A stretch of DNA of 63,252 nucleotides, filler included, from Folioceros fuciformis (GCA_049999805.1; 15 parts of 15 records of this genome joined end to end with filler, not necessarily neighbours in it); one strand, 5' to 3'; positions 4,805 to 63,252 are shown, counted from the whole stretch's first letter. Made by a program: numbers and translations. The notes: generated from the letters alone by a model not told the origin.

Positions 4805-4904
4805 NNNNNNNNNNNNNNNNNNNNNNNNNNNNNNNNNNNNNNNNNNNNTTAATTAATTAANNNNNNNNNNNNNNNNNNNNNNNNNNNNNNNNNNNNNNNN
4901 NNNN
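4805..4904. other. Artificial contig linker N44-TTAATTAATTAA-N44 (first of 14)
   Basis: Identical 100-bp linkers start at 4805, 7750, 11141, 14365, 26519, 33431, 37246, 40736, 43414, 47307, 49214, 53627, 59118 and 61605. The core puts stops in all six frames. Confidence 0.98.
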
Positions 4905-5580
4905 GATGAGTGGAGAAGAGAGAGCAAAGAGGGTGAGATCCTAGGGCGAGGTGAGTAACGTGTCTGGGGTATAATGAGGTGTGGCAGGTGACTGATCGCG
5001 GTGAGCCTGGAGAGGTTGTGAAGAAGTTGAATTGAGACCGCAGAGGGTGTATCTAAGGTGTGAGATCCCTCGGGTGGAAGGCGACCGGCAGATTGTTGCT
5101 GTGTGCATGTGTTTGACCCTGAGGAGTGAGGGGCGGCTTTGTGGAGAACCAAGGAAGGGAAGCGCAAAGGGAATGCGCGGAAAAGAACGGTTGGAAAGGG
5201 ACGACTCGGAGAGAGAGAAAATTCTAGAGAGAGAGAGAGAGGACCCGCGAGTGGTAGCCCGAAAGACAACGGTAGTAGTCCACTGGGGAACGGAGAGTAG
5301 CCCAGTGTGCAACCAAGAGTAGTCCAGGAGGAGGTAGTCCCTGGAGCGACCGAGTGGTAGGGGAGTCGCCTGGAGGAAGAAGTAAGGGGGCTTGGTAAGG
5401 TCCGAGCACTGGATGAGTGTGTGTGTGGGTCAGTCGAGTTTTAGGTGTTGGTTGACTTTAGAAGCTAACCTGTGTAGTTTAACACAAATCATTCCCTTGG
5501 GATCGAATCCCAGAGCTACAACGACATAGAGGGCTTGTGTGGACCTCGCGGTACCCCCGGGTACCATATTTTAACCCCAC
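4905..5580 (+). repeat. 3' part of a long LTR-like repeat (Ty3/Athila-like U5 end)
   Basis: CATTCCCTTGGGATCGAATCCC..TGTGGACCTCGCGGT..TATTTTAACCCCACA matches 46544-46634. Confidence 0.6.
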
Positions 5581-5689
5581 AGGTTCCGTCTTGCACATTC
5601 AGCATTTGTATCTATATCCTAGTGTTGTTTCCCACTACTCTGCATGTCACATATTGTAGCACAATCTGCTGCAAGTGAGGGCAATCCAT

Positions 5690-5990
5690 GTCCAGAAAAT
5701 GGAAGATTCTGATTCGAAGAGATTGCAGCAAAGACTTGCAGCAATCTGGGTTTGAAAGGAGTTGCATGACACACACAGCTTGGTGAGTCAGTAAGTTACG
5801 CCATGAACTACAACACTGGAATCAAAGGCAGTGAAAACGTTCTTCGTCCTAGCTCCCAATTCCAGATAACACAAAAATAGGGTTTGAGCTGCCTTCCCCA
5901 AGCTATAGCGCTGCGCGGCGACCTTAGGGATCCCCCCTAAGGAGAGGGTAAACATCTGGTGTTTCTTTCAAGCTTGCTTGCCTAACGCAG
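5690..5990. repeat. Dispersed repeat of unknown class
   Basis: Clearly alignable to 41878-42170. Confidence 0.8.
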
Positions 5991-5994
5991 ACTG

Positions 5995-7252
5995 ATGGGA
6001 TGGGCTGTTGGTTGCCACGAGGGAGGAGTGCTGCAGGTTATGCAACGTTGGCGCTTCTCATAAAAGCCAACACATTTTCTTTCAGTGCGAATATACACAA
6101 GGTATCTGGAACGAAGTTGGCTAGTGGCTACAGAGACTTCTTCCAGAGAGAGCCATCTTGGTTACTAAGCAAACTGCCTTGTTCGGGCTGGAAAGATAGT
6201 CGGGGAGGACACTTCTGCAATTCCAATGGTGGGGCGTGGTTTGGTCCATGTCACTGTTCTCCTTATGGCAAAATTGGACGGCAATGGTCTATGGCGGGAG
6301 TGAGCCGGTGGCTAGGAAAACTCTGTTATGGTCTATATGGGAACATGTACTTGTGGTCGCAGAAAGTATTCGAACGTCCGGGCACACTAAGTTCAGGCGG
6401 AAAGAGTGGAAACTAGCAAGCTTCCTCCGGCACAACGACCAATGGGACCACTCCTACCCGTGGAGCAGGCAAGTCTCTCAAGGGCCGGGTGGCTCTCGGC
6501 CATAGGATATTTCAGCTTTGCTCGCTTATGCAGCCTAGACTTAGAGTGCAGGCTTACGTCCCATTCAGTTGAATACGCAATTGCTATGCCTTGTTGTAGC
6601 CTTAATGGCGAATAATCAGAATTTTTCTTTGCTAAAAAAAGAGAGTTCCTCATCAAATATATAGAAACGCCAAGGCAACTACAATTGGTGCGGACTGCCT
6701 GGTCATTGGGCTCGTGAATGTCGCAAAAAGAAAGCGGGAAAATCTCAAAGTGTAGCACCTCGCCCGGCAACTGCGAATTCAACAACTCAACAAAATAAAG
6801 ATAAGCATACATTGGATTTCTCAACACCAAATTCAGGCAAGCCAGTTGTAAAGATTCTAACTATATGTCTTAAGGTTGAAAGTTGGTACTTGGACAGTGG
6901 GGCAACAGCGTACATCTGTCGGGACGAGTCTCTTTTCACTTGCCTTACTTTTTCTTCTGCTCCAGACAGAGTCTACCTTGGTGATGAGAGTAGTGCCACT
7001 AGTCTAAGTATCTTAGGATCTGGAACCTGCAAGTTCCTGTTGCATGATGACTCTGAGTTAGTGCTTCCACATGTCTTATATGTCCCAAAGATGGCAAAAA
7101 CCTTGATGTCCTTGAGCAAACTCATGAAAATGAAAAGTTTAGTACTTACTGTATCAGGGACTGTATGTTGCTTCTCTAGACGTAGTGCTCTTGATATCTG
7201 TATCTTTAAGGCCTTCTTGGAGTCAGAGTTGTATTGCCTAGACATTTCTTGT
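5995..7252 (+). pseudogene. Copia gag-protease remnant
   Basis: NWCGLPGHWARECRKKK zinc knuckle near 6683-6735; WYLDSGATAYIC protease in ORF 6812-7294; truncated by an LTR insertion. Confidence 0.85.
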
Positions 7253-34329: not shown

Positions 34330-36570
34330 TCAAAGGTAATCAGACGTGTATGTATTGTGTGGCACCTGGATGGATGGGCGCTGGGCCGAATGAGCTTGTG
34401 GGTGGTTGCAATTGAGTCGTCTCATGTGCTCTAGCCCAGGTACTTCGGCAACTGGCCTACTAGCTGGGGGCAATGACATTTGTTGCGAGCTGGGTAGATG
34501 CAGCGTGCGATTGATGGGACAGTGCTTTGGGAGCCCTGCCAGACTGAGTGCTGGCAATGCAGTTTAGAAGGGGCTGATAATCAATGTGTGTTGACTGGTA
34601 GGGATGTTTGTTGCATGCGAGCTGGCTAGGTTGGACCAGTGTGTTTCGGTGTGGCATTCACAGGCGTGGATGGTGTGGTTGTTAATACTATGTGTGTTAG
34701 GTGGTGCAAGGACGCTGAGCTTGCATATTGGGATACGAGTGCGCACACGAATTGGAAGGTGTTGATCACAAGTCGGACAGTCGGATTTGGTAGGCCTTCG
34801 CGCCAGGGCCTTCCTTGTTTCCCTTGGACAAGTTTTGGCATTTGAATCGATGTACGCTGGGCACATGTGGCTGGCGGGTGGTCGCGAGTGAGTCGTCTCG
34901 TGTGCTCAAGCCCAGGTACTTCGCGAACAGGCCTACTAGCTAGGGGCAATGGCGTTTGTGCGAGGATAGATGCTGTGACTGCTGGGCTCGTTCCTTGGAG
35001 AGCAGCCTTCACTAGTGCTGGCAGTGTTGAATTAAGAGCTGATGCTCCATGTTTGCTGAGCTGGATGGATGGTTTGTTGTACATTAGCGAGTGAGTTTGT
35101 TTGTTGTATGGGCAGTCGTGGGTGGTGTGGTCGCTGAGAACATGCGTGTTGCAAGGACGCTGAGCTTGCATGATCGGATACGCGTGCGCACACGAATTGG
35201 GAGTTGTTGACTCCAAGTCGGGCAGGCGGATTTCGTAGCCCTTTGGACCGAGTCCTTCCTTGTCTGCCTCTGATCAGTTTGGCATTTGGATGGATGGTCG
35301 CTGAGCAGACGTGGCTTGCGGGTGGTTGCGATTGAGTGGTCTTTTGTGCCCAAGCCCAGGTACTTTGGGAACAGGCCTAGTAGCTATGGGCAATGGCATT
35401 TGCGCAAGGCGACATACTGTGTTCGCGGGGCTATTGCGTTGGGAGCAGTAGCAGGGCTGGCAGGGTAGAGTGAGCTTATGATCCATGTGTGTCGAGTGGG
35501 ATGGATGGTTGTTGCATGTTGGCTGGCTGGGTTGGGCCAGTGTGTTCCTGTGTAGCATTGACAGGCGTGGATGGTGTGGTTGTTGATACCATGTGTGTTG
35601 GGTGGTGCAAGGACGGTGAGCTTGCATTATCGGATACGCGTGCGCTCACGAATTGGACGGTGGTGATCCCAAGTCGGACAGGCCTTCCTCGTTTCCCTTG
35701 GATCAAACTGGCATTTGGATCGATGGGCGCTGGGCAAGCGTGGCTTGCGGGTGGTTGAGAGTGAGTCGTCTCGTATGCTCAAGCCCAGGTACTATGCGAA
35801 CATGCCTACCAGCTAGGGGCAATGGCATTTGTGCGAGGATATATGCTGTGACTGCTGAGCTCGTTCTTTGGAGAGCAGCCTCCTCTAGTGCTGGCAGTGT
35901 TGAATTAAGAGCTGAAGTTCCATGTTTGTTGAGTGGGATGGATAGTCGTTGCACATTAGCGAGTGAGTTTTGTGTGTTGTATTGGCAGGCGTGGGTGGTG
36001 TTGTCGCTGAGAGCATGTGTTTTGCAAGGACGCTGTGCATGCATTATCAGTCACGCGTACGCACACGAATTGGGAGGTGGTGATTCCAAGTCGGACTGTC
36101 GGATTTGGGGGCTTCGGGCCGAGTCCTTCCTTGTTTCCGTTTGACCAGTTTAGCATTTGGATGGATGGTCGCTGGGCAGATTTGGTGTGGGTGGTTGCGA
36201 GTGAGTCGTCCCTTGTGCCCAAGCCCAGGTACTTTGGCACCAGGCCTACCAGCTAGGGCCAATGACACTTGTGCGAGGATCCATGCTGTGATAGTTGTAG
36301 CCGGGCCGGGAGTGTAGAGTGAGCTGATGATATACTTGTGTCGAGAGGGATGCATGGTGCATGTTTGTATGTTGGCTTGGTGAGTTTTTTGGGTAGCATT
36401 GGCAGGCGTGGGTGGTGGGGTTGCTGATAACATTTGTGTGGGGTGCTGCAAGGTAGCTGTGCTTTGCGCAATCAGATACCCGTGCGCGCACGAATTGGGA
36501 GGTGAGATCCCAAGTCGGGCACGCAGACTCGGCAGTCTGACCTTCGGATGGAGGCCTTCCTTGTTTCTCT
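34330..36570. repeat. Tandem repeat of about 430-475 bp units, five copies
   Basis: Anchor AGCCCAGGTACT at about 34433, 34909, 35353, 35782 and 36222; CACGAATTGG and CAAGTCGG also recur. Confidence 0.9.
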
Positions 36571-36655
36571 TTGGTCATCAGCTGAGTAGCGAGATTCATG
36601 GTGGCGGTGGTGGTGTAGTCGTGAGGAGGTGGGGCAGCGGTAGCGGTGTGAAGGC

Positions 36656-41029: not shown

Positions 41030-43413
41030 GAAGTGTAATCTGGTGGGGTCTGGGCTCGTGTGTTGTGACGGAAACTTGTAAATGGGGACCAGCTGGTTGC
41101 TAGCCTTGCTGTTGAAGGTGGAGTGTCGGGGTCGAAGTTGACTTCCACAAAGTCCTGAGCTTGCTCCTGCCTCTTGGCTGCCCTCCTCTGTTGTGTGTAT
41201 GCACGTCTAGGTGGGGTGCTTTGTCCAGGGATGTCACGGGATCTCAGTCTATAACAAGGACTGGTCCCATGCTCCTTAGGTTGCATTCCCCCATAAACAT
41301 GCACAACAAACAACAAGTCAGCTAGCTAGGCTGGAAGAGGAAAAGAAGGCAAGCCAATACTGCATTCACGCTTGCTGCTAGAGCTAGAAAACCAAACCAA
41401 TCCACAACTGTGAAATGCAAAAGTCACAGCTTCAAAAAAGGACTTGTAGGGAGCCGGTCTAAAAGCTAAGCTAAGAGCTAAGCTACACGTAATGAAAGAC
41501 CTCAAATATCACTGTCCACGAGAGCCCTAGCCCCTATGCTGCAACAAGAGGAGTGTTGGCTGCAAATAGCCAACATGCCCTAACTGAAACCCTAGGTGAC
41601 CAACTCCTCCAAGGCATTTAGTCCCTGTATTTCACTCTAAATTGAACAAAAATTATACCAATGGCTTTGTCTCAGTGAGGCAAACAATCTAGTATGCAAA
41701 TTGAAAGCAACCGACCTCTGAAACCGACGCTACAAACTCTGGAAGGTTGGGAAAGCTTGCTGCAGTTGAACTGCTGTTGTTGCTGCTAGCACGATTGGGG
41801 CGTGTGGGTGATGCTGCCTTGCTGTAATTGCGTGGCCACCTCCACCTAGCTCATTCGCTCCCACATCTTGCTTCCCTGTCCAGATTGAGATAGTTGTTGA
41901 AGTGAAGAGATTGTAGCAAAACCTTGCAGCAATTTGGGTTTGAAAGGAGCTACGTGACACACGCAGCTTGGTGAGTGAATAAGTTACGCCATGGACTGCA
42001 ACACTGGAATCAAAGGCGCTGAAAACGTTCTTCATCCTAGCTCCCAATTCGAGAGAACACAAAAACATGGTTTGAGCTGCCTTCCCCCAGTTACAGTGCT
42101 GCGCGGCGCAACTTCAACAACCATCGACTTCTGCCCTGGCTGCCCCTTTTGCCTAACGCCAGCCATCTTCATGATCCAACGTCCAGCTGAGTTGGCTTCA
42201 CGCCCTTGCATCAGCACTGCTCCTTGCATGATGCCTTGCTAGCGTACCCTAAGTTCTGTTGTTTCCCCACGTTGCCACGTTGGGCAGCAGGGTTACACCA
42301 ACAACAAGTTGGGAAATACCCAACATGCGTTCAGACTCAACTTGCCTAGAAACATCTAGCTATTTCTAAGCTAGTTTGCGAAATATCTACCTAAGCTAAG
42401 TTCATTTATCCTAGCATTTAAAACATATATTTGCTATCCTATTCTAAACAACATTGGCTGAGGGTTTCTTACCTAATCGGCGGTCACCTTCATGACAAGG
42501 CTCCATACGACACCTTCCTCAACCCCACAATCTAGCTGCTCGTCTCCCTACGACCAACAAGTTTCCCTCCGAGCCTGCTCAGCTCCCTCCAACTGTGTTT
42601 ATCGTTCACCTACGACATTCAACCTTCCCTATCTCATACCTTCAACACGTCCAATCGGTAGGAAGGCACCATTCCTTCACTTGGAAGGGCCCCAGTACCT
42701 CCCCCTACCGACTTCCAACTACCTACACCCACCACCTCTCCCCACAAGTCTCCTCACAACACCTTTCACACCATCCAACTCCACGTCTCCCTACATCCAA
42801 CGACCAACAAGTTTTTCCTTGGGCCGGTTGCTGCGTGCTTGTGCCTGTTAGCAAGAACTTCAAGGGAGTCTTTCCCTAGAGTCTACCCTCAAGCCAACAG
42901 TCACACAAGTATTGCCACACACCTACAGCAGCACAACAACCATTCACAAGGGAAGCAACTTGCAGGGGTGCCCAGGAAAAATATGAACCTTCCGCCAAGC
43001 ACTTCGACCACTACAACTCTAGCCACAACCAAATGCTGTGATGGCACACAGCCGGCAACAAGATTCCTATGCTCTGCTGAGCATGAGAACTCGCCATGAG
43101 AAGAGTGCGGAATGTGGTGGTTCATTTCTTTGTGTAGCCCCTCTTTATAGGAGAGATCGACACATGAACCCTCTACTCCATGTAGGTGGTGGGCTACTCT
43201 TCTCTCATACTAGGCGCCACCAACTTTAACTGCACACACCTACCAAGAGGCTAAGTCCTACCAATAATTGTTAGGGCAGTGCGTGCCGCTAAAGATTCGG
43301 ATTGTCGGCCATAGAAGATTCGCTGACCCTCTCTCTAAAAAGGTGTGGCTAGGACTGCTCCTGAAGGGAGGCAGAGTCTGAAGGTTGAGCTACTGGGCCC
43401 CCCTCCATTATTG
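41030..43413. repeat. Unclassified dispersed element
   Basis: 41878-42170 matches 5690-5990; 42805-43413 matches 50675-51270. Confidence 0.65.
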
Positions 43414-43513
43414 NNNNNNNNNNNNNNNNNNNNNNNNNNNNNNNNNNNNNNNNNNNNTTAATTAATTAANNNNNNNNNNNNNNNNNNNNNNNNNNNNNNN
43501 NNNNNNNNNNNNN

Positions 43514-43720
43514 TTCTCCCAAGTTGAGTTGATGAGATCTTCTCTCTGGAAGAGGAGATGCCTAGCCTGGAGGAGGATTTGTCCAGTTGTGACGTTGGCC
43601 GTGTGGAAGCACACAACGTCGGCTCACTTGATGTTGAACTTGTTGTGGATGATTCGTGTTTAGTCTACTCACAAATTGTGAGAGAGCATCATTAGGACGC
43701 TGCCCACGCCTCCGTGTCAT
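43514..43720 (-). pseudogene. ORF0 N-terminus (not in the ORF track), one TAG
   Basis: MTRRRGQRPNDALSQFVSRLNTNHPQQVQHQVSRRCVLPHGQRHNWTNPPPG*ASPLPERRSHQLNLGE aligns to the ORF0 starting at 48541. Confidence 0.7.
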
Positions 43721-44085
43721 TCTGAAGATTCAACAGACTCATTTACAATCCCATTTAGTTTAGATTATGCTAACACTATCTAGAGTGCAGGCAGAGATAA
43801 GTTACTGGTCACACAATCGCACATTTTCTGAGAAAGAAATTTGTGCATTATGTGAACAGCTAAATTATCTATGTTGGCACAATTCTAGAATCAAGATAGA
43901 TCAAATATAGCTGGTGCTCTGATACCATGCTACTAATTGCGGAAGTGAACTTTGTACAAAAGTATTAAAATGATAATAAAGGAAAGCATCCTTTAAATAC
44001 AAAATTGTGTGTGTGTCTTTTGGGTTAATTAAGTAACCTCTAGCTAAACTAAGCCATAAGCTATGTTAGGGTTTTATATCCAACA
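43514..44085 (-). mobile_element. Copia 5' end: LTR 43928-44085, PBS 43916-43927, start of ORF0
   Basis: LTR and leader are homologous to 48490-48923 (TGCTACTAATTGCGGAAG). Confidence 0.85.
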
Positions 44086-44127
44086 CTCCTAGCTCAAGTC
44101 AGGGAGGCCCATGGAACCAACTAGGAA

Positions 44128-44866
44128 ATGCAACAGAAATTGTTGAGGGCCCAGGAGCAGGAGGTGGCTGTAGTGGAAAAAGTGCAGAAATTGGCGAATA
44201 GGTATAAGCGGGAGTGGGACGAAGCTCGAAGCCGGGTGAAAGGGAAAGGAAAGGCTAGGCGAAGTAGCTTAACTACGACGGAGGTAGCTGAAGAGGCTAC
44301 CGATCAGAGAGACCACGCCGGTAGGGGAAAGCCCAACCAAGGTAGAAGAGGCAGCAACCGTCGAGGAGCCCGCATCCGGCACAGCTGGAATGGCAACCCG
44401 CACTAGGAGGACAGGACAGGGCGGAGCGGCAGCTAGGGGGACGGAGGATTTTGCAGTGCCACTCGACAGCAGAAGATAGGCAGTTCGGGATAGCCCACTA
44501 GGGGAGGGGGTAAGCACCTGATCCGCTGCAGAAGGCGAGATTGTATTGCAGCATCTGGATGAGGCAACTTATGTTCTTGGCCTTTATGTGGATGGAGATC
44601 GTGTGCTAAACTTAACTGTCCATGTGCGTGTGGAACTAGGAGGGACAAGGGCCTACTGCCTGCAACTGAGGACTCGTAGGGGATCCTTCTTCCACTGTTG
44701 TCGGGTGTGGGGATTGCCCCCTTACTATTCGGAGGCAGTCCTAGAAGAATTAACGGAGGAGGAGGCACAGGCATGGGTTGAGCGAGAGCCCGTGATGGTC
44801 CTTAGCAACAGGCGACTAGAGGGAGGAAGGAGCACCCCTCGATGGGCCCACCCACGCCGCCACTAG
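44128..44866 (+). other. Unknown ORF remnants, probably TE-borne
   Basis: Coiled-coil/basic ORF at 44128-44406 and protein-like ORF at 44546-44866; no recognised family. Confidence 0.3.
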
Positions 44867-45292
44867 AAGGGTCAAGCAGCAGTGGGGAGGTAGAAATCCT
44901 GTGGGAGGATTTGTCTAACCAAAGGCGAGGGAGGAGGGCTCGAGGTTGGCGGGCGAGAGGAGCGCGACGATCGGACAAGAGGCGAGCGCGGCGATAAGAT
45001 AGGCCATAGTTATTGCATCTTAAAATAGAATACTGTAGAATCTGGAGAAGATGCTTTCTTGCACGTGATGCCGCTCATAATTAAGAGCGCCCACCTGTCC
45101 GCAAACTAGAATTAATGGTGGCTGTGGACCCACCATCGTGTACAAGAGGCATGTTGGCACCTCACTGAAGCAGCGAGAAATCGACATTCCAACCCGAGGA
45201 AGCTTGGCGGCAGCCGCTGCCTGATAGGGAGATCCGGCAGGTGAGTGCATGCGGCGTTCCTGGGAGGAGGTGTGCGCGACTTCTCTGCTCCA

Positions 45293-46634
45293 TGACGGGT
45301 GGTATTGGGGACGAATCGGTGGGGGTTCTCACCGAGTGGAAGGCAAACTTCCCCTCTATTCCCGGTAATTCGCGTTGTGTGTCGCTGTAGAAGTGAAGGG
45401 GAACGAATCCACCCACTGTGCGGAGTGAAGGGAGAACGATCCTTCCCTTATTCCCTGAATCAATGAATTGTGGCATGTGGTTGAGGTGAGGGGGACGAAT
45501 CCGCCCATAAGCGGAGTGGAAGGGGTGCCGGCTTCCCTTATTCCCTGACTCTTCAACCACTCCTCCAATACAGTGATGAGAGTGAGTGGAAGTGAAGACT
45601 GACTGTGCGTTGTAGTTGAGGGAGGGAAACGAATCCGCCCAATAAGCGGAGTGGAGGGAGCTTTCCTCCTTCCCTTATTTCCCCACTGTCGGCTGCAACC
45701 TGGCCCTAGTGTTGGTGTGAGTGAGTGTTGAGATATGATCGTGTAAGAAGGTGAGAAGTGAAGGAACGAGTGAGTCGAGACGAGAAGGAGTGAGTAACGC
45801 CGTGCTTGCAGAGAGGGGAACGAATCCACCGACTGCGGAGTGGAAGGAGCGTCTCTCCTTCCCTTATTTCCCGAACTGTTGGCTGCGGATGGGTGTGCTG
45901 CGAGACTGAGTGTTTGACAAGAGAGTTAAGGTTGCAACGAGGTTGTCGAAGAATCCCTAAAGAGACTTCGGGTGCTGGGAAATGCTGTTAAGAGATAGTG
46001 GTGCGAGGGACGATTGAGAAACCGCTTGGGAAATCGTGGATATTGCTGAGGGTTGAAGCGAGCTTGCGAGGAGCGACTGTACACCGAAGTTTGGCGTGTG
46101 TTGGAAGCGCGGTGTGGGTGTGAAGCGTGAGGTGTAATCATCCTATGGAACCGGGTTGTCTAAGTGTGTATCTGTGGTTGTGAGGAGTGTTTAATAACCC
46201 CAACCCACGACTCTTGGGGATCTAGGTAGAAACCCGTGAGTAGAAACCCGCGGTGGTACTTGTGTCGACATGTGTTAGTTAGGACCTTGGGTGGGACCCA
46301 CCACGGTAGCAGAATCCGCCACCGATTGTGGAAACCCCAACCAGTCGTAGAGGAGATAGTGGTCGTGGAGACCCCAACCCCGGTTGTAGAGTAGGGACTA
46401 GAGTCGTAGAGTAGGGTCCGTGGTAGCTAGGCTAATTGAGGGGTAGTGGTACTTGAATTGGCAGGTAGTAGAAGTGGTAGGGGATAAGGTCGAATCTACG
46501 TAAGAGCCAGTAGTAGAAGAAACCTGTGATACTCAGCACATATCATTCCCTTGGGATCGAATCCCACGGCTACAACAACATAGAGGGTTTGTGTGGACCT
46601 CGCGGTGTCCTCAGACACAATATTTTCCTCCACA
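45293..46634 (+). repeat. Long LTR-like repeat (about 1.34 kb, Ty3/Athila-like)
   Basis: Starts TGACGGGT (as at 62354) and ends TGGGATCGAATCCC..TATTTTCCTCCACA (as at about 5580); abuts a truncated Harbinger transposase; no clean TSD. Confidence 0.55.
45307..45872 (+). repeat. Array of five roughly 60-nt structured (three-way junction) units with unique spacers
   Basis: Units at about 45307, 45397, 45488, 45622 and 45813: GGGGA-CGAA-hairpin-GT-hairpin-CTTA-TTCCC. Confidence 0.8.
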
Positions 46635-47306
46635 CTAGAGCTAACAACTTCAAAGTTCAAGCACCTCACAGGTCTACCGAATATGGTTGGAGCTATAGAT
46701 GGTTCTCACATCAAGCTCGCTACACAACCTAATAAGATAGATAACCCAGGTGCATACTGGTGTCGTCATGATATTCACTCTATTGTACTACAAGGCGTAT
46801 GTGATGCTGATAAAAAATTCATTGATGTATGTTGCACTCATTCTAGTGGAGTTCATGATGCTACAATTTTGAGGGAGAGTAGCATATGGGAGAAGATGAA
46901 GACGGGTGTTATTTTAAGAGACCCTATTCTACATATCGAGGATATTGAAATGGCTCCATATATCTTAGGTGACAGTGTTTACCCATTAATGCCTTTCCTC
47001 ATAAAACCATTTTATGCAACAGGTGAAGATCGGACTAAAAAACATTTCAATTGGTCCTTGAGAAGGAGAAAAGTGAAAGTGGAAAATGCTTTTGCCTTAT
47101 TGAAAAATAAATGGCGTGTTCTAAAGAATAATAATATGCGTTTGAAGTATGCTCCGCAGGTTGTTATCGCTTGTTGCGCACTTCATAATTTTTGTATACA
47201 AGTTGGAGAGTTAGAAGCACGACAATATGATGAAGACCCATTTCCACTACATGAAACTAAGTGTAATCATACTTGGGAGGCTCTTGCAGAGCGTCAGATG
47301 CACAAC
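46635..47306 (+). mobile_element. PIF/Harbinger transposase (DDE_Tnp_4, HARBI1-like), partial
   Basis: GAIDGSHI, SIVLQGVCD, HDATILRES, ILGDSVYPL, VENAFALLKNKWRVL, ACCALHNFC. Confidence 0.93.
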
Positions 47307-47406
47307 NNNNNNNNNNNNNNNNNNNNNNNNNNNNNNNNNNNNNNNNNNNNTTAATTAATTAANNNNNNNNNNNNNNNNNNNNNNNNNNNNNNNNNNNNNN
47401 NNNNNN

Positions 47407-48923
47407 AGGTAAGCTTGCATCCGGGCTCTCCAACTTTCATAGTTGATAGACTTGCCATCAAAACAATCTTTTTCTTCAAATTCTCCAGCATAGTTACCAG
47501 CTCCAGTAGTTGTAGTCATACTGATAATTGGTGGTGCTGAAGTAGATATGAATGGAGGAGGATTGAATGCAGGAAACTGAGTTTGCAGGGATTGGACAAA
47601 CGCAAGTTCAGTTGCTAAGTCCTCATCTAGATCACTATCTGAGTCCGAAGATAACCAGCTAAGGCCAAACGACATGGAAGAAAGCGAAACGACATTAAAG
47701 GAAGGTATGTGACGTTTTGCCTAAAACCGACACACTTAGGGTTAGATATGAAAGTATCTAAATTATCATGAAATGTTGCAGATGAACGCGTTGCAGTGAC
47801 AAGTGGCAGAGCTCAGCAACCGCCATTTCTGATGAAGAGTACCGATTGAGATCTGCCAGCGTGCCCTCTCTCCAGCACTGCAACTCACGTGATCCCCCTC
47901 CAATTCTGGAGCGAGAGATCACTTTGCGCAGGGCGTCGTTACAGATCTGGCTGTCCACACGTCAGCGCCATGTACAGATCCTCACGAATGTGCAGAGAGC
48001 TCAGCAAATTAGTGGCAGCCTGATGTGACTGCGGCACTGAAGTAGTCACGGATCCAATTTCCAAGCGCTCAAGTCTCTCTGACTGAAACGAGAGTGAATT
48101 CTGCACACCGCGAATCAGGGTCTGTACCAACATCAAGCGTTCACCCTATTGCAGCAACAGAGACTGCTGCCGACGAATTTGAGTAAGAATCGATCCCTCT
48201 GAGTTGGTGATGCTTGATCGTAGTCCCTCCGACCTGAACTCAATCATGGAATCAAGGGTATCGAACCCTTCATTAGTTTCTGAATACGTTGGAGAATCTG
48301 ACCGCCTTGGTCTGTCGTGGGTATTGCAGGGAGGCGGAGACGGAGCTCTATCCCCTAAGTTGAGCTGATAAGGCCTGCGCACAGATGGTCGAGGTGTCCA
48401 CTGCTCTTGCTGGCCTTGAGGAAACCGGTGCCCACCACGATTGTTTCCTTGCCGCTCAACTTGGTGTGTTCGACTCCTGTGTTGTCTGGTCACAAATTGT
48501 GACGAAGACTCCTCGGGACGTCATCCACCTCTCCGCACCATTCATACACACAACACAGACTCATTTATGTATTCATCTCATAGTTTGTAGAAAATACTGA
48601 TGATCTCTAGAGTGCACACAGAGATGCCTTAGTAGCCACATAATCAAACATTTCTCAAGAAGAGATTTGTTCATTTTGTGGTTAGGTAAAACATCTATGT
48701 ATGCAGTATCCTAGAATCAAAGAGAATACAAATGGATCAAGTAAACTGGTGCTATGATACCATGCTACTAATTGCGGAAGCGAGCTTTGTAAAAGCATCA
48801 ATTAATTAAATAAAAAGGAAAGTGTCCTTTAAATACAAAATTGTATAGTGACTTTTGGGTTAAGTATTTAACCTCTGATTAGCAGCTAGGGTATTAAATA
48901 TGTTAGGTTTCTTACTCCTAACA
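47407..48923 (-). mobile_element. Copia 5' end: LTR 48763-48923, PBS 48751-48762, ORF0, gag start at 47675
   Basis: PBS TGGTATCATAGC; gag EFEEKDCFDGK..YESWRARM is homologous to the gag at 27914. Confidence 0.9.
47939..48541 (-). pseudogene. ORF0, about 200 codons, two internal stops
   Basis: ATG at 48541 (MVRRGG*RPEESSSQFVTRQ) is in frame with ORFs 48146-48493 and 47939-48136; helical C-terminal half. Confidence 0.7.
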
Positions 48924-49313
48924 GGAATGAAGAGAGACAATCCGAGAAATCGAACTAATGAAATGGTCACCCTAAACCTTGGCCGGTAAAGCATACATAT
49001 GGAGTGAGTGATAGGGACAATAAAAAAATCTAGATACAATTGATAAGAGGCTTATACAATCCAGTCTCTCTAAATGTGACCACTAAAAATATTATACCTC
49101 TACAAATGTTACGAGTTAGGGTACTCTCGAGTTAGAGACTAAAGTTAAATATGATTTTCTATTATTTTTATATATTACTTGTTTTAGGAAAATATGCACT
49201 CCCAATCACTACANNNNNNNNNNNNNNNNNNNNNNNNNNNNNNNNNNNNNNNNNNNNTTAATTAATTAANNNNNNNNNNNNNNNNNNNNNNNNNNNNNNN
49301 NNNNNNNNNNNNN

Positions 49314-50040
49314 ACAGCGATGCCTTCTTCCTGCATGGCACTGTAGAGCTGAAGGGCCTCTTGGTCCTTGCCCTGTAAGGAATACCCTGCAGCTAGACCA
49401 GTCCACATCACCACGTCTTTCTAACCCATTTCAAAAAACAATCTGTGGGCATCCTCTAGGCTGCCACACGTCGCATACATGTTCACCAAGCTATTGGCTA
49501 CAGACACATTAGCCAGATGTCCTTGTGCTCTAATTAGCTCATGGAGCTGGCTCCCCGTCACCAGAGCAGGAAAGCTCACACTTGCACATGCCTGCAGGAG
49601 GCAGACATAAGTCATAGAGCTGGGTACAGCCAGGCCTCCTTCCAACATAGCATTGTAGACAAGAAATGCTTCCTGGCCCAAGCCCTGCTGGGAGTACCCG
49701 GATATCATGGTAGTCCACGTCACAACGTCCTTCTCAACGAGTCCGTCAAACACCCTTCTAGCCTCTCGCAGCCTGCCACACTTCCCATACACATCCACAG
49801 GCAATTAGAAACAAACAAATCCCGCCCAAACCCACTGGCCAATACTTCGGCATGCAGCTTCTGGACAGCCATCAAATCTTCCCCCTTTGCACACACTTGG
49901 AGGGCAGCCACGAAAACATGGCTATCGGGCTCCACACCCGACCTACGCATCCTACGATATAGCTCTACAGCCTGCCTGTGCAATCCCCGTTTCACATGCA
50001 CAGAAATTATGGAAGACCACATGAAGGCATCTAGATTGGA
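49314..50040 (-). pseudogene. PLS-class pentatricopeptide repeat gene fragment, disrupted
   Basis: VDVYGKCGRLREARRVFD..KDVVTWTTMISGY, NSLVNMYATCGSLEDAHRLF; frameshift at about 49800 and TAG at 49421. Confidence 0.9.
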
Positions 50041-50674: not shown

Positions 50675-51270
50675 CCAACAAGTTTTTCCTTGGGCCGGTT
50701 GTTGCGTGCTTGTGCTTGTTAGCGAGAACTTCCAGGGAGTCTTTCCCTGGAGTCTACACTCAAGCCAACAGTCACAAAGGTATTGCCACACACCTATAGC
50801 AGCACAACAACCATTTACAAGGGAAGCAACTTGCAAGGGTGCCCATGGAAGAATATAAGCCCTCTTCCAAGCACTTCGACCACTGTAACTCTAGCCACAA
50901 CCAGGCGCTAAGATGGCACACAGTCGGCAACGAGATTCCTACGCTCTGTTGAGCATGAGAACTCGCCATGAGAAGAGTGCAGAATGTGGTGCTTATAGGA
51001 GAGATCAACACATGAACCCTCTCCTACATGTAGGTGATGGGCTACCCTTCTCTCACACTAGGCACCACCAAACTTTAACTGCGCACACCTACGAAGAAGC
51101 TAAGTCCTACCAATAATTGCTAGGGCAGTGCTCGCCGCTGAAGATTAGGACTATCGGCGCTGCCATAGAAGATTCGTTGACCCTCTCTCAAAAAAGGTGT
51201 GGCTAGGACTGCTCCTGAAGCTAGGGAGAGTCTGAAGGTTGAGCTATTGGACCTCCCTCTGTTATTGGGA
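50675..51270. repeat. Second copy of the unclassified dispersed element
   Basis: Aligns to 42805-43413. Confidence 0.85.
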
Positions 51271-52994: not shown

Positions 52995-53726
52995 GTTTGG
53001 TACCTTTTTCCATAACACCTTAATTCTTAATATAAAATGATGCACATGAATTTCTCAACAAATATATTTCGTATGCACTCAAATCTATGCTTTAAGTCTA
53101 CTAGTATATCTCAAATAGACCAAAGAATTTATATTTGAATGAACTAAACAAAGTACTGATCATTAAAAAATTATTTTATAACAAATAAGAGAAAAATAAA
53201 CTAATAATTATAAGGAGTGAAAAGGAGAGAAAATTAATAAGAAAATTAAAAAAAAATGTATGAATGGGTGAGGGAAAAAGTAGAAAAAAGGCCAAGAAAA
53301 CAGGATGAAAATTTTAAGGAGGAAAAATTAAGATTAAAAAGTGAGAAAAAAGAATAGTGATTGCACACTTGCATTCACCACTTAGTAGCATTTTGCAATT
53401 TGTTTTCAGATTTTTTTTTTCGATTTTGATCTTAGGAGTGACGAATTTTAGAACAATTTTCAACATGTGAATATGGCCAAAACTATAAATCCAAAGGGGA
53501 AATATCTCCTCGATGTCTATGAAGGAAATTGTTACTGAAACTTAATTGGTGCACATCAAACTTTGAGGTGGGATTTTGAGAATATATTGGGTTTGAAAGA
53601 GTAAGGAGTGCTCTTCCAGATGGACCNNNNNNNNNNNNNNNNNNNNNNNNNNNNNNNNNNNNNNNNNNNNTTAATTAATTAANNNNNNNNNNNNNNNNNN
53701 NNNNNNNNNNNNNNNNNNNNNNNNNN

Positions 53727-56700
53727 CCTGGCGCTCCTCATCTGTCTGTGGACACTGATCATGAGAAAGCTTCAATCCTGCAACTCCAGGAGTAGACACG
53801 GGTTTAGCAGTGTCCAGGTGAAAACGGTGCAGGGTTTCAGCAATATATTTAGCTTGATGAAGCATAAGGGAGCCAGCTTCTAGATCACGAACAAGTTGGA
53901 CACCGAGGACAAAGGTAAGAGCTCCAATGTCTTTCATGTCAAACTTCTGATGGAGCATGTCTTTGACCCAAGATAACAAGCCTGGATCGTTGGATGCGAG
54001 AATGGCATCGTCGACATACAAAGCGAGAACCACGAGAGTACCATCCTTGTTGTAAAAATACACGTTGGCATCACCAGGGTTTTGAATGAAGCCGATGGAT
54101 TTAAGGTACTTGTCAATTGTTTTGTACCACTCCCGTGCTGATTGTTTTAACCCATAAATGGTCTTCTTAAGATGGCAGACCCAATCTGGATGCTCGGGGT
54201 CCACAAAACCCTCAGGCTGCGACATATAGATGTCCTCTTCCAGCTCACCGTAGAGGAAAGCTGTGCAGACATCCATCTGCTGGAGGTCCCAAGCGTTGGC
54301 TGCAGCTAGAGCAAGTATCATACGAATAGACTGGGTCTTTACCACAGGACTGAAAGTCTCTGTGAAGTCAATACCTGGAATCTGGGTGAAACCCCTAGCC
54401 ACAAGCCGAGACTTATATCGAGCAATCTCACCCTGGGCATTCAATTTGTGCTTGAAGACCCACTTGCAGCTGACAACTTTCCGACCTTTAGGTAAGGGGC
54501 ACAATTCCCATGTATCGTTCTTTATCAAGGAGTCATACTCATCCTTGATCGAGGGGATCCAGTGTGCCTTGTCAGCACCCGTGATTGCCTCCCGATATGA
54601 CTTAGGTTCAGGCTTGATGAAGAGTGGATTGCTCACAGAAGACTTGGATTTTGGCAGGGTTACTCCAGCTCTAGGGCGTCGAAAGTCAATAGAAGCATAT
54701 GGGGGTTCTGTCCACTGGGCGGGAGGATTCCTGGTGCGCTGAGGATAGCGACGTTCTTCAGGCTGTACAGCTAGAGGAACTTCAGCCACATCGTCATCAT
54801 CAGTAACGGGACCAGGTAAATTGTCATTCAAATCAGAATCAGTAGAGTGGACAGAAATATCTTCTGCAGCGAGATCATTTTCAGCCTCATCCTCTGCTGC
54901 AGGCTGTTCCCTGACATCATTAGTATCAGAAGCCTGGTCTTCTTGAACCAAGTGAGCAGGCGGTGCTACATGAGCAGCTGGATCAGGAGCCTGAAAATCT
55001 GGTACAGCAGGGTCATTGGCCTGTGGATGTGCAGGACCCGCTCCAGGGTGTTGCACGGCTGCAGGAACCTCAATGAGCACAACTCCAGGTGTGTCGTCTT
55101 GTGGAAATTCGGATGAATCTTCCATGTTTGTCAAGTCCACATGAGTGACTCTTTCACTGTTGTCTGACAGGTGATCAAAATATGGCTTGGCAGGACACAC
55201 AAGTTCTTTGAAGGTCACGCTTCTGGCAAAGACTGCTGTCGAAGTAAGTGGATCAAGCAACTTATAAGCTTTAGCCTCTTCCCCATAACCCACAAAAACA
55301 AGTGGGCGTGCTCTATCTTCTAACTTTCGTCGCCGCTCTTCAGGGATATATGCATATGCTGGGGAGCCGAATACCCGCAGATGCAGCAGGCTCGGCTTTC
55401 TTCGCCATATTACCTCAAACGGAGTTTGTCCATCCACAGCGCTTGTAAGAAGCCTGTTAAGGAGATAAGTTGCTGTAACCACTGCCTCTGCCCAGTATGC
55501 TTTGCTTAAACCTGCCCATTCTAACATGCTTCTTGTCATTCCTAGCAGAGTCTGGTTACGACGTTCAGCAACGCCGTTCTGTTGCTGAGTATACGGTACA
55601 ATCAACTGTCGTACAACTCCCTTTTCCAGCAGGAACTGGTTGAAGTGGGCATGGGTAAATTCTCCCCCGTTGTCAGTACGAAGCTGTTGTAGCAAGCATC
55701 CAGTCTGCCTCTCCGCCATCACCAACCATTCCTGAAAGATCTCAAACGTATCGGACTTCAACCGGAGAGGGTATGTCCAAGAGTATCTACTAAAGTCGTT
55801 AGTAATGGTAAGGTAATATAGGGCACCACCTAAAGAGGGGACATGAATCTTGCCTGAAATGTCCGCATGTACTAACTCTAGTACCTGTGATGCACGATGA
55901 GCCACTGATTTAGGAAAAGGAATTTCCTTTTGCTTGGCTATGACGCAGGCATCACAAAGAGGTAGGTCTTTAAAACATTTTGGCAAGGGCTCTCTATAGC
56001 AGTTCAAGTTCGACATTTTTATCAACTTGTCTCTATTAGCATGACCTAGTCTAGCATGCCATAAACTGGCTTGGGCAGACTGTGATAAGTGAGCGGCATG
56101 CACAGACTCAGGGGGAATGCATGTGAGATCAAGCTGGTACAAGTCATGAAAAAGATGTCCTTTACCTACGACCTGTCCATCCCCCCCTCGCTTCTTAAGT
56201 TCACAACTATGAGAAGTGAAGAGGAGGTCGTACTCTCTAGAAGACATTAATTGACTAACTGAAAGGAGGTGCTTGGCCATGAGGGGAACATGCAGGACGT
56301 TGTCAAGATGGAGGATGGACCCATCGTGCAACCGGAAACGACATGTGCCTGACCCAGCAATGTGCAGACCTGTACGGGTAAGTTCATCTCCCAGCAAAAC
56401 CTTATCAGACGTATGAGAAGGTCGATAGTGACTTAGCAAACTTCTGTCGTTACAGATATGGGAGGTTGCCCCAGAATCTAAGTACCAACTATGAGGGGAA
56501 GGAGGACCTGCAGACGATGCAAAACAAACGGTCATGACGACAGGAGGTTTGTTAGCAGTTGATGAAGGCTTAGCGACAGTGTGGGCCTCAGCCTGCTTAG
56601 GCTTCTCGACCTTACGAGCTTCGCCAGCTTTCTTTTTTCTGCAGTTCCTCTCCCAGTGGCCCTGGATGCCACACCAATTGCAGGATCCAGGCCGCTTGCT

Positions 56701-57558
56701 GGAAGAAGGTCCAGAAGGTGAGTCACCAGGAGTGGGTCTACCCTTCTGTCCTTTATGCTGCTTCTGTCCTTTAGTATAAAGAACCTTGTCTGTTTTTGTT
56801 TTTCCACCCTGTGGTGTATAATGAAGTCTGCTTTGCTCCTCTTGCAGGAGAGCACCGATCACGTCCATAAGGCTGATTTGTGGTGCTTTGCCAGCAGCTA
56901 CAGCTTTGTCTGCCGCGCGAATGGAAGCACCAAAGCCGGAAACAAAGGTCTGGTAGCTGGGTGGTAGGCAAGTGAGGAGTTGAGCGACTGCATCCAACTC
57001 CGGAAACTGAGATCCTAGGTTCAGAAGCTGGGCCCTTAGTTGGCGAAACTTCAAGACGAAAGGTCCCACCTTCTCGCCTTCTCTAAGTCTCATTGAAAAC
57101 AGCTCTCCACGGATTGCACACTGTGTAAGTATGTTCTTTGCCTCGTACGTTTGCAGCAATTGTGTCCAGATTTCGTTGGAGTCTGGTAGGTAAGCCACAT
57201 CGGGCAAAAGGACTTCATCAAGACCACTAATCAAGACCGCACGAGCAACGTGGTTCAGGTTGTCCCACTTCTCTATCTCATCCACTGGAGCTCCTGCAGC
57301 TGGTTTAGGGAGTGTGCCACTAACCACATTCCACACGTGCCGAGCTTGCAGGGCAGCGGTCATTCGCACACGCCATCCATGGAACTTGGAGCCATTGAAA
57401 CGGTCCTTCTCTTTAAATTCCATGGAGAAGGATGGTGCAGGTATCACTGGCACTGGTGGAAGAGATGGAACTCCTCCACCGCCACCTCCAGCACCCCCTC
57501 CGCCTCCAGCTCCAGCACCCCCTCCTCCTCCACCTCCAGCGCCCCCTCCTGTAGCCAT
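53727..57558 (-). CDS. Copia gag-pol polyprotein (partial, more than 1270 aa)
   Basis: Poly-Gly N-terminus, FKEKDRFNG, CNWCGIQGHWERNC, WYLDSGAT, rve, YVDD; no stops. Confidence 0.97.
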
Positions 57559-57902
57559 TCTGACTTACTTTGATAAGATTATCAGGTGCTCACGGGTGAT
57601 CAAGCCGATTGCATAAGGTACTCTTCTCGAGGTAGGTCGAGATGCTGTAGGAGGCTGACAGATGAAGCGTAGGAGAGGGGCACCAAGGGTCGGTGAAGAG
57701 GCGCGAGCCGCGAGGTCAGATGTCACGGGACACCACAGTGGGCGTCGGTTGACGGTTAGAGTCTGGAGATGGCTGACGTGGTGTGTCTTCGAGTGGCTGG
57801 GTGCAGAGTCGCATCCTGTGAGTTCTTGCTGCGAGCAGGCACCTGTAGGTCGAGGCGCCTCCCGCCAGAAAAACACAGCGAGCACGAATCTGCAGATGCG
57901 CC

Positions 57903-58463: not shown

Positions 58464-58747
58464 TTTATGATTAGAGTAGCATGATCTGCTGCGTTACGAC
58501 AGACAGATCCACACAGCAGAAGTCTCTTGTTTACTGTCATGCAGATTCTAAAACATATTACATTGCTAACGTGGTAATGTAGGTAGTGAGAAGGAATTTT
58601 AGACACACGATCCTAGAATCACAATTTCTGTGACTCATGGATTTTGTGTCCTATAATCCCCTTTTGCTACATGCACCTACCATAGCCGAGTATATTAATA
58701 CAGACAGTAAATCAGATCGTGTATCAAAGCCTAGTGCTCTGATACCA

Positions 58748-61604: not shown

Positions 61605-62353
61605 NNNNNNNNNNNNNNNNNNNNNNNNNNNNNNNNNNNNNNNNNNNNTTAATTAATTAANNNNNNNNNNNNNNNNNNNNNNNNNNNNNNNNNNNNNNNN
61701 NNNNGGGGGTGGTTGGTTGTCCTTGGCCTTTGGCGGAGAGGGGGGGGTACCAGGAGGTCTATATATGCACCCCCCCCTTAAACATAAGAAATAAGAAAGG
61801 GGCCTGGGAGAAGGTAGTTGTGTACTTAGGCTGGAAAATAGGGATGCTGTGACTCGGCGACAACAGGTAGCTGAAGTTCGACGACGATCACCGAAGGACA
61901 ACGCCGGTAGCCAAAGGGGCTACCGGTAGTCGAGCGACAACGGAGGTAGCCGAAGGGACAACGCCAGTTGCTGAAGGGAGACGACGGTTGCTGAAACCCT
62001 ACCTGCACCAGGAGGCTTGGAATAGCAATAATTGCAGCCAGAGTGACAGGAGGCAACCAGCATCCTTAGAGGGCAAAGAGTGGACAGCCAGGATGGGTCA
62101 GCCAGCAGCAGGAGTGAGGAAGGATTTGCCCAATCAGCAGCAAGGAGGGAGAGCCTGAAGATTTTGTGTGGCAGGGGGAGGTAGGCCAGAAGAATAAATA
62201 GGAGGAGAGAGAGTGGCGTTGAGATAAGCCAAGAGTGGTTGCATCTGAAAATAGTATTTAGATAAGATTTGGTAAGATGCTATTCTGACCTGGTGCCGCC
62301 TACCATTAAGAGCACTTTTTTTTAAAAGTTGACTATTTTAGAGCTAGACTTTA

Positions 62354-63252
62354 TGACGGGTTGTGGCTCCCGCTCTTGGAAACTCTGTACAAAAGGGGCC
62401 TATTGGTGCCTCGCTGATTAGCCAATGTTTGAGACCCCTCCCGGTTGAGATACCCTGCGCTGTCCATGGCGAGACTAGAGAGGTCTGGGTGAGGCAGTGA
62501 GTGCGAGACGCTCCTAGGGGTAGTTGAGGATTTCTGCTCCACAACTGAAAGTGAGGGGGACGAATCCACCGTTGCTGGAGTGGAAGGAGCACCTTCTTCC
62601 CTTATTCCCTGAACGGCCAGTTGTGTTTGCAGTGGAAAGTGAGGGGGACGAATCCACCGCTGCTGGAGTGGAGGGAGAGCTTCTCCTTCCCTTATTCCCT
62701 GAGTTGGTTGACTGCATTTTTAATCTGGAGTTGAAGAGAGTGTGAGTTGAGAAGGAGAAGGAGTGTGTGAGAGAAGAGAGTGTGTGGAGAAGAAGAAGTG
62801 TTGGAGAATGCATGAGAAGAGTGAGTAAGAAGAGGAGGAGAAGGAGGCTGAGGAGCTGGAGTGAGTTGAGAAGAAGAGAGTGAGGACTGATTTTTGTCTG
62901 TAGCTGAGAAGAGGGGGACGAATCCACCGCTGCTGGAGTGGAGGGAGATTTCCTCCTTCCTTATTCCTTGAACCATCAGCTGCGTGCTAAATTTGGTGAG
63001 GAGAGAGAGCTGGAAGACTGAAGAGAACCATGGAAGATTGCTGGAGGAGATTTGTTGAGAAATCGTTGAGAAATTGCTGGGTGATTGTTTGCTGAGGTTT
63101 GGACGAGATTGATGGGGAATTTCTTAGGAATCCCTGGATGTTTGTGGAGGACTGAGGAAGGCTATTGATGTTTCTGTAAGATTGCTGGAGACATTGTTGA
63201 AGAGTTGGAGAAAACGGCTGAGAAGATTGCAGGAGAATGGAGGAGGAATGCT
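62354..63252 (+). repeat. Long LTR-like repeat 5' part with three structured units (62553, 62641, 62911)
   Basis: TGACGGGTT start; same roughly 60-nt units as 45307-45872. Confidence 0.6.

Follow-up and report, generated by a model that had tools for sequence, protein, structure and literature searches.

The strands that join the three helices of the hammerhead ribozyme are 7, 3 and 1 nucleotides long. Among the cis-acting RNA signals of retroviruses and retroelements are three-way-junction packaging signals and the export elements CTE and RRE; the repeat modules of long non-coding RNAs include ones in which short, conserved hairpin cores alternate with variable spacers; and the subterminal repeats of DNA transposons (CACTA, hAT and PIF/Harbinger) lie in both orientations at both ends of the element and are conserved in sequence without compensation. 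Hammerheads occur in the retrozymes of plants and in Penelope-like elements (PMC4918200; bioRxiv 10.64898/2026.07.22.740005), and the cis-regulatory part of the LTR of Sireviruses (Copia) contains arrays of palindromes (PMC4728375); our account of these two systems follows the accessible portions of the sources.

Like the hammerheads, as those portions present them, the units described here have a small three-way junction in which the joining bases are conserved, the stems covary and the loops vary, and they lie, sometimes as tandem copies, in non-coding repeats present many times over. They differ in that they have neither the CUGANGA box nor a match in Rfam, in their junction strands of 4, 2 and 4 nucleotides, and in the addition of a closing helix (P0) and an internal loop. 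With the Sirevirus palindromes they have in common that several spaced copies occur per element, that conservation is higher in the arms than in the centres and that the copies can form hairpins, although in the part of the source available the Sirevirus motif is a single near-perfect palindrome of 17 nt, interpreted both as DNA and as giving rise to siRNA (PMC4728375). Each of our units, in contrast, is a branched fold of four helices, 86–90 nt long, with a conserved non-palindromic junction, covarying arms and a G-U asymmetry. In architecture the units also resemble the retroelement RNA signals, which are structured, protein-recognised domains of the sense transcript in which bases of a junction or loop, held in place by helices, are needed for function and multimerisation raises activity. 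They share with the long non-coding RNA modules a structured conserved core, spacers that differ in both length and composition, and a presumed multivalent binding of proteins; those modules, however, belong to single-copy host genes, whereas here a larger branched core is found in a multi-copy repeat family.

The sequence examined (the window) is a 63-kb stretch consisting of a chain of unplaced contig pieces joined by 14 linkers. Each linker (for example 43414–43513 and 61605–61704) is made up of 44 N, a 12-base word with stops in six frames and a further 44 N, and neighbouring contig pieces have no physical linkage. The five units that the sequence-only reading had reported at 45307–45872 were found there, and were also recovered by a direct-repeat search; a search of the window yielded a second array, with three cores at 62553–62972, in an unrelated contig piece. 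Since the first array (A) lies in the piece 43514–47306 and the second (B) in the piece 61705–63252, which reaches the end of the window, the two are independent loci. In the window, the signature ACGAATCCNCC has 13 matches at up to one mismatch, against 2.3 expected, with all seven exact matches inside units, and the complete three-block pattern has six matches against 0.00 expected. Run on both strands of the window, covariance model R1, built from the 64-nt core, retrieved exactly the eight units at 48–81 bits, with the next best match at 13 bits, all of them in one orientation and in a single cluster per locus. A model including P0 (R2) returned the same eight units only, at 58–89 bits, the next match in the window scoring 12.6 bits. 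The coordinates are collected in Table 1; units A1 and B1 appear orthologous.

Table 1. Coordinates of the arrays, their units, the parts of reference unit B1 and neighbouring features (bits, score with covariance model R2; WC, Watson–Crick).
Feature	Position	Strand	Remarks
Array A	45291–45887	+	Five units; core start-to-start 92, 92, 134 and 191 nt
Unit A1	45291–45379	+	57.9 bits; most diverged unit; P0 7/8 paired; MFE is the full P0-P1-three-way-junction fold, z −3.10
Unit A2	45383–45472	+	68.1 bits; most degenerate unit; z −1.03; P0 5/8 paired and absent from MFE; A-C mismatch in P2; P3 minus one G
Unit A3	45476–45561	+	83.4 bits; z −2.75; P0 with 7 WC pairs
Unit A4	45611–45697	+	79.7 bits; z −3.23; MFE and centroid are the full P0-P1-P2-P3 fold, retained in folding of the whole array
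Unit A5	45801–45887	+	81.0 bits; z −1.22; MFE has P0, P1 and P3; A-C mismatch in P2; P0 rich in wobbles
Array B	62540–62984	+	Three units; starts 88 and 271 nt apart
Unit B1	62540–62625	+	87.6 bits; z −2.51; reference for anatomy
Unit B2	62628–62716	+	89.3 bits, top match; z −1.46; P0 6 WC + 1 wobble
Unit B3	62899–62984	+	82.3 bits; z −2.69; P0 8/8 paired (6 WC + 2 G-U)
B1 P0	62540–62547 with 62618–62625	+	8 WC pairs
B1 internal loop	62548–62554 and 62611–62617	+	
B1 P1	62555–62560 with 62605–62610	+	
B1 J12 (CGAA)	62561–62564	+	
B1 P2	62565–62569 with 62575–62579	+	
B1 J23 (GT)	62580–62581	+	
B1 P3	62582–62589 with 62593–62600	+	
B1 J31 (CTTA)	62601–62604	+	
Element left of array A	43514–44085	−	LTR of ~158 bp at 43928–44085; initiator-tRNA PBS 43916–43927
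Second copy of short-LTR element	48458–48933	−	PBS 48751–48762, 1 mismatch; ~72% identity between copies
PIF/Harbinger-type DDE_Tnp_4 transposase fragment	46566–47306	+	DDE_Tnp_4 match at 46584–47354, 2.5e-24; ~700 nt downstream of array A
Pentatricopeptide-repeat ORF fragment	49421–49804	−	PPR_2, 2.1e-19
Copia-type polyprotein	53671–57564	−	Open for 1297 aa; gag, integrase, RVT_2; no motif unit

Each unit is a closed domain of 86–90 nt in which P0 and an internal loop lead to helix P1 and to a three-way junction with two hairpins, P2 and P3. The order proposed previously for the core (P1, CGAA, hairpin 1, GT, hairpin 2, CTTA and P1′) is correct, and RNAalifold recovers the three-way junction; the core is real, but the length then given for the unit, about 60 nt, is too short, the 8-bp outer helix P0 having been overlooked. 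P0 is formed in every unit by 8 nt lying about 6 nt upstream of P1, complementary to 8 nt lying about 7 nt downstream of P1′, and its sequence varies from unit to unit. It was found on a plain MAFFT alignment lengthened by about 20 nt on each side and not fitted to structure. Nor are the spacers all unique, as had been supposed: those of about 30 nt between the short-period units are homologous, and consist mostly of the 3′ strand of one P0 and the 5′ strand of the next. The longer spacers of array A are low-complexity sequence rich in G, A and T. Across the eight units P2 has 4–6 bp and a loop of 5–8 nt and P3 has 5–9 bp and a loop of 3–9 nt, while the joining bases (ACGAAUC, GAGUG and CUUAUU) are nearly invariant. 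A GA precedes P1 and another follows P1′ in six of the eight units, in which the two could form tandem G-A pairs.

Pair statistics were obtained from the plain MAFFT alignment (207 pair cells in 27 pairs), with controls in which the partners were slid or the alignment was shuffled 500 times; the measures based on pair counts and pair types gave false positives in 0–1% of unstructured, tree-related alignments. All of the covariation and conservation statistics refer to eight related copies at two loci and, as these share ancestry, the pair cells overcount events. Over the four helices 91.8% of the cells are paired, against 45.6–58.7% when the 3′ partners are slid, and 12 of the 27 pairs are altered on both sides, compared with a shuffle mean of 4.6 and no shuffle in 500 reaching as high; further pair types number 28 against 22.7 expected (1/500 shuffles). 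P0 taken alone is 89.1% paired, against 28–56% when slid, with six of its eight pairs altered on both sides (1/500 shuffles), and three pairs of the A3 helix differ from those of B3 on both sides. Duplexes of cognate 5′ and 3′ flanks are more stable than non-cognate ones (mean −18.35 versus −13.96 kcal/mol; permutation p = 0.002), which supports P0 independently. A simple palindrome of the Sirevirus type was rejected, as the P0 arms are 45% identical yet 89% paired and the fold is a four-helix branched one.

Mean pairwise identity is 95% in the junction, 76% in the stems of P1–P3, 45% in both the P0 arms and the internal loop and 26% in the hairpin loops; between arrays A and B the same classes give, in order, 96, 75, 49, 48 and 24%. 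The pattern is typical of a functional RNA, and the motif persists in two loci whose flanks are approximately 70% alike or cannot be aligned. Against the fold stand the A-C mismatch in P2 of two of the units and the poor P0 of A2; on balance we regard the four-helix fold as likely to be real.

The covariation could instead have arisen without function, in a decaying tandem repeat of about 90 bp with chance palindromes, through CpG deamination and shared ancestry. The covariation claimed for hairpin 1 is present, but its G-C to A-T change, taken by itself, is explicable by methylation-driven decay: CpGs lie on both arms of P2 there and one-sided A-C intermediates are seen in A2 and A5. The outermost P0 pairs are likewise CpG-derived, on both arms, and nearly all of the compensatory changes are transitions. 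However, the interior P0 pairs (alignment columns 11–14 with 95–98) change on both sides outside CpGs, as does P2 of A1, which has been swapped for a different, perfect 6-bp hairpin by changes that involve transversions, and these methylation-driven decay cannot explain. Neutral decay also predicts equal numbers of A-C and G-T mismatches, where P0 shows 0 and 15, and a uniform loss rather than a junction at 95% and loops at 26%, so that an origin without function appears very unlikely. The sequence-only reading had named two results as counting against a structured RNA, a lack of significant covariation and substitutions explicable as methylation-driven transitions; covariation proved significant with an alignment made independently of the structure, and most of the compensatory changes in P0 fall outside CpGs. 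Without the evidence from P0, methylation-driven decay would be hard to exclude.

The pairs also indicate which strand carries the fold. All helices together contain 157 Watson–Crick, 33 G-U, 5 A-C and 12 other cells, and P0 contains 42, 15, 0 and 7, respectively; of the cells, 91.8% are paired on the + strand, compared with 78% on the − strand. Base composition could raise the number of G-U pairs in P1 and P3, as the + strand is rich in G and poor in C; P0, where both the U-G and the G-U orientation are present, is less affected, so that the G-richness of the + strand is insufficient on its own to explain the excess. With P0 included, the + strand units fold at −23 to −38 kcal/mol, with a mean z-score of −2.2; for the − strand the mean is −0.8 (A1 −0.72, A2 −0.28, A3 −2.45, A4 −0.46, A5 −1.08, B1 −0.70, B2 −0.52 and B3 +0.08). 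The asymmetry between G-U and A-C (33 versus 5) and the better z-scores of the + strand thus assign the fold to that strand, in agreement with the earlier proposal, which had drawn on the G-U deviations. P0 is part of the MFE structure in seven of the eight units, but the complete three-way-junction fold is the MFE in only about four, B1–B3 favouring a local GGA/UCC hairpin. The 60-nt core alone folds no better than shuffled sequences (z −1.7 to +0.2), a failure that is seen on either strand and is resolved when P0 is included, as folding then beats the shuffles. Folds of the whole arrays barely do so (z −1.2 and −1.3), and only some of the units keep the fold in them.

The same observations bear on the possibility that the repeats act as DNA, as enhancer-like modules or as transposon modules bound by a transposase or transcription factor, the palindromes being protein sites rather than RNA stems. 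Spaced palindrome arrays with arms better conserved than centres are typical of the regulatory regions of transposable elements, according to the available part of the Sirevirus study (PMC4728375), and the arms of P1–P3 are conserved in sequence besides their pairing. The P0 arms, however, vary and yet stay complementary, unlike a sequence-specific DNA site; G-T exceeds A-C by 33 to 5; the distance between the arms changes with the loops of P2 (5–8 nt) and P3 (3–9 nt); and the units keep to a single orientation and one cluster per locus. The subterminal repeats of DNA transposons offer a parallel of this kind, being irregularly spaced clusters of short motifs near a transposase gene, as DDE_Tnp_4 homology lies about 700 nt downstream here, but our units have one orientation only, and the transposase homology is truncated and lies beyond an intervening high-copy segment. 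We therefore consider it unlikely that the units function as DNA.

Comparison with known RNA classes agreed with the suggestion that the motif is undescribed, no family of Rfam 15 being matched at its gathering score anywhere in the window. The best sub-threshold match was MIR2275, at 18.7 bits (gathering score 60.5), and several lncRNA and snoRNA models scored 10–16 bits. ARAGORN predicted no tRNA genes in the window. In tRNAs and SINEs the A box precedes the B box, whereas in the units a B-box-like word in J12/P2 precedes an A-box-like word; a tRNA or tRNA-derived SINE was ruled out by the ARAGORN result and by this reversed order. In box C/D RNAs a terminal stem directly adjoins the C box (RUGAUGA) and the D box (CUGA). 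A CUGA follows P1′ in half of the units, RUGAUGA is found in none, and 5–8 unpaired bases separate GA from P0 on both strands of the unit; a box C/D snoRNA with a k-turn was ruled out, there being no RUGAUGA and the boxes not being flush with the terminal stem. A reading of the units as mini-introns of the form GUGAG...CUUAU...CAG was also rejected, as the 5′ GU and the 3′ AG are each kept in about four of the eight units and the invariant ACGAAUC and GAGUG would be left unexplained.

The longest uninterrupted helix of the consensus fold has 8–9 bp, P0 of A3 reaching 10 bp; a plant miRNA precursor was rejected, in view of the missing near-continuous duplex of about 21 bp and of the MIR2275 score. 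A wider form of this idea is that the units are hairpin precursors of small RNAs, miRNA-like or giving rise to hairpin-derived siRNAs, which would feed silencing of the repeat family. The hairpin-forming palindrome regions of Sireviruses are hotspots of 21–22-nt siRNAs, in the portion of that study at hand (PMC4728375), and the best Rfam match, though insignificant, was to a miRNA family, but the helices here, of 4–9 bp, are broken by an internal loop of 5–8 nt and by the branch, and the conserved part is the junction rather than a mature-RNA arm. Such a role seems highly improbable.

The units are not canonical hammerheads, in line with the earlier reading, the core box being absent from all eight. 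CTGANGA occurs 47 times on the two strands of the window (44.8 expected) and never within a unit, and in 45000–46200 and 61705–63252, searched on both strands at E up to 10, none of the Rfam ribozyme families, the hammerhead included, was matched. If the unit were a new self-cleaving or processing RNA, multimeric + strand transcripts would be cleaved to Y-shaped RNAs one unit long, the cutting agent being either the RNA or a structure-specific nuclease. Consistent with this are the ribozyme-like small three-way junction with joining bases about 95% conserved, the covarying stems and free loops, and the tandem, independently closed domains, in the genomic style of the hammerheads in retrozymes and Penelope-like elements as far as the accessible text describes it; the absence of any known ribozyme family and of the hammerhead box, junction strands of 4, 2 and 4 that fit no rotation of 7, 3 and 1, and an irregular spacing of 88–271 nt speak against it, and we think processing of this kind improbable. 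Slightly less probable again, in our view, is that the units represent a new kind of small RNA that is catalytic or that senses a ligand or protein; in the boldest version of this reading, a new self-cleaving ribozyme with a 4-2-4 junction core, carried in tandem by a plant mobile element, would process or circularise the transcripts of that element.

Beyond the window, the strict three-block pattern had no match in metagenome contigs or in prokaryote genome contigs, and a looser block pattern had none in viral contigs; plant DNA makes up little or nothing of these collections, and the lack of matches in them is therefore uninformative for other plants. The two-block pattern gave 30 metagenome loci, of which four reached E up to 1 with the covariance model; at 15–19 bits these are pattern-driven and were dismissed as chance. 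The articles retrieved with words from the units contained, in their accessible parts, only unrelated primer-like matches, and those on three-way junctions in the packaging of plant retrotransposons, to the same extent, nothing pertinent.

The repeat that bears the array extends over at least 44270–46100 at locus A and is collinear with locus B in patches of 69–74% identity. Many copies of the family exist: 734 contigs of run X1 align at 80% identity or more, which suggests a number between dozens and hundreds, and the summed depth of run contigs is highest over the bins that contain unit sequence. Run X5, the kind of which is only guessed as RNA and the contigs of which are strandless, has three contigs with unit-like sequence at 80–95% likeness, which are accordingly given no weight as a sign of expression. 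Pfam gave nothing on the 15 ORFs within or overlapping the visible host repeat and the indels in the loops are not multiples of three, which indicates that the host repeat is non-coding; the 189-aa frame that crosses array A on the − strand had no match when used as a query. In run X3, many C residues over 44500–46600 are read as T in all contigs, where X1 and X2 have C; X3 has the appearance of a library made from the same sample after bisulfite conversion, from which methylation of the array could be mapped.

The description of the host as an LTR-like repeat is unsupported. The apparent LTR pair, 42804–43413 and 50675–51267, spans different contig pieces, and the LTR reading was dropped as unproven because this suggestive pair lies across contig linkers. 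No LTR ends, PBS or PPT attributable to the host repeat could be established in the window; a word resembling a PBS, conserved in front of array A (about 45176) and of array B (about 62406), could not be matched to any tRNA, and the sole PBS near array A belongs to a separate short-LTR element on the − strand. In both copies of this element an LTR of approximately 158–171 bp directly abuts a PBS of the initiator-tRNA type; the element is TRIM-like or short-LTR Copia-like, and is separate from the array-bearing repeat that it borders.

Upstream of both arrays, the best conserved sequence is a flank block (44984–45088 and 62209–62313; approximately 69–72% identity) that keeps a hairpin stem of 6–7 bp in both copies, and more hairpins of 6–9 bp with purine-rich loops are seen at about 44277–44296 and 61906–61928. 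The whole host repeat may be a structured non-coding RNA. The 5′-splice-site-like word GTGAGT occurs six times around array A (45241–45795), five of these in spacers, against 0.7 expected (0/2000 simulations), and three times in array B (62742–62866) against 0.9 expected; near both arrays it is exclusively on the + strand, and is in part (GTGA)n-like low complexity.

A very-high-copy segment begins at about 46514–46537, between array A and the transposase homology. A block of about 110 bp (46514–46626), 82–85% like another in a different contig piece at 5459–5572, contains a word resembling a tRNA T-arm, and its summed depth of 4125–7193 is 10–50 times the value of approximately 100–500 around it; it could be SINE- or MITE-like, or the start of a conserved transposase exon. 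The transposase is 5′-truncated, with homology from residue ~150 of its full-length relatives and without an upstream exon, and its best matches, at 44–49% identity, are from liverwort and fern; taken with the pentatricopeptide-repeat ORF and the Copia- and Harbinger-type genes of the window, they indicate a land plant as the source. The contig piece ends at 47306, where the fragment is cut, the termini of the transposon being out of view. Elsewhere in the window, the Copia-type polyprotein is accompanied by a PBS of the initiator-tRNA type at 58736–58747, and a strongly G-skewed piece contains a tandem repeat at 34357–36577 with a period of about 430–445 bp, in three to five copies of 64–89% identity.

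From the observed fold, strand and pattern of conservation we infer a cis-acting function, and the reading that we prefer, with middling confidence, is that the units are cis-acting structured domains of + strand RNA, probably forming a multivalent platform for protein recognition. Each unit would be a domain of a putative + strand transcript of a multi-copy, non-coding interspersed repeat, closed by P0 and its internal loop and continued through P1 into the three-way junction with its two free-looped hairpins. Such domains may serve in cis as recognition sites that recur along the RNA and fold independently of one another. That the junction stays invariant on helices that vary and compensate suggests a functional surface at the junction, which would be the part recognised, with the stems as its scaffold. 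The several copies per array suggest avidity and so favour a multivalent platform, on which an RNA-binding protein could assemble. The protein might be one of the element or of an autonomous partner, acting in packaging or in recruitment of reverse transcriptase, or else a host protein concerned with export, stability or the control of silencing.

Apart from the hammerheads in retrozymes, almost no RNA structures that act in cis are known from the mobile elements of plants. The candidate motif has an invariant junction together with stems that covary, loops that are free and a clear strand signature, which is the profile of RNAs that bind a specific partner or are catalytic; each element carries several copies of it, and the family is present many times in the genome. 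Confirmation on a genome-wide scale would provide a new family for RNA databases and, should the unit cleave, a new class of ribozyme; it would also give a handle on how the RNA of a non-coding repeat family is recognised, whether for packaging, export, processing or evasion of silencing.
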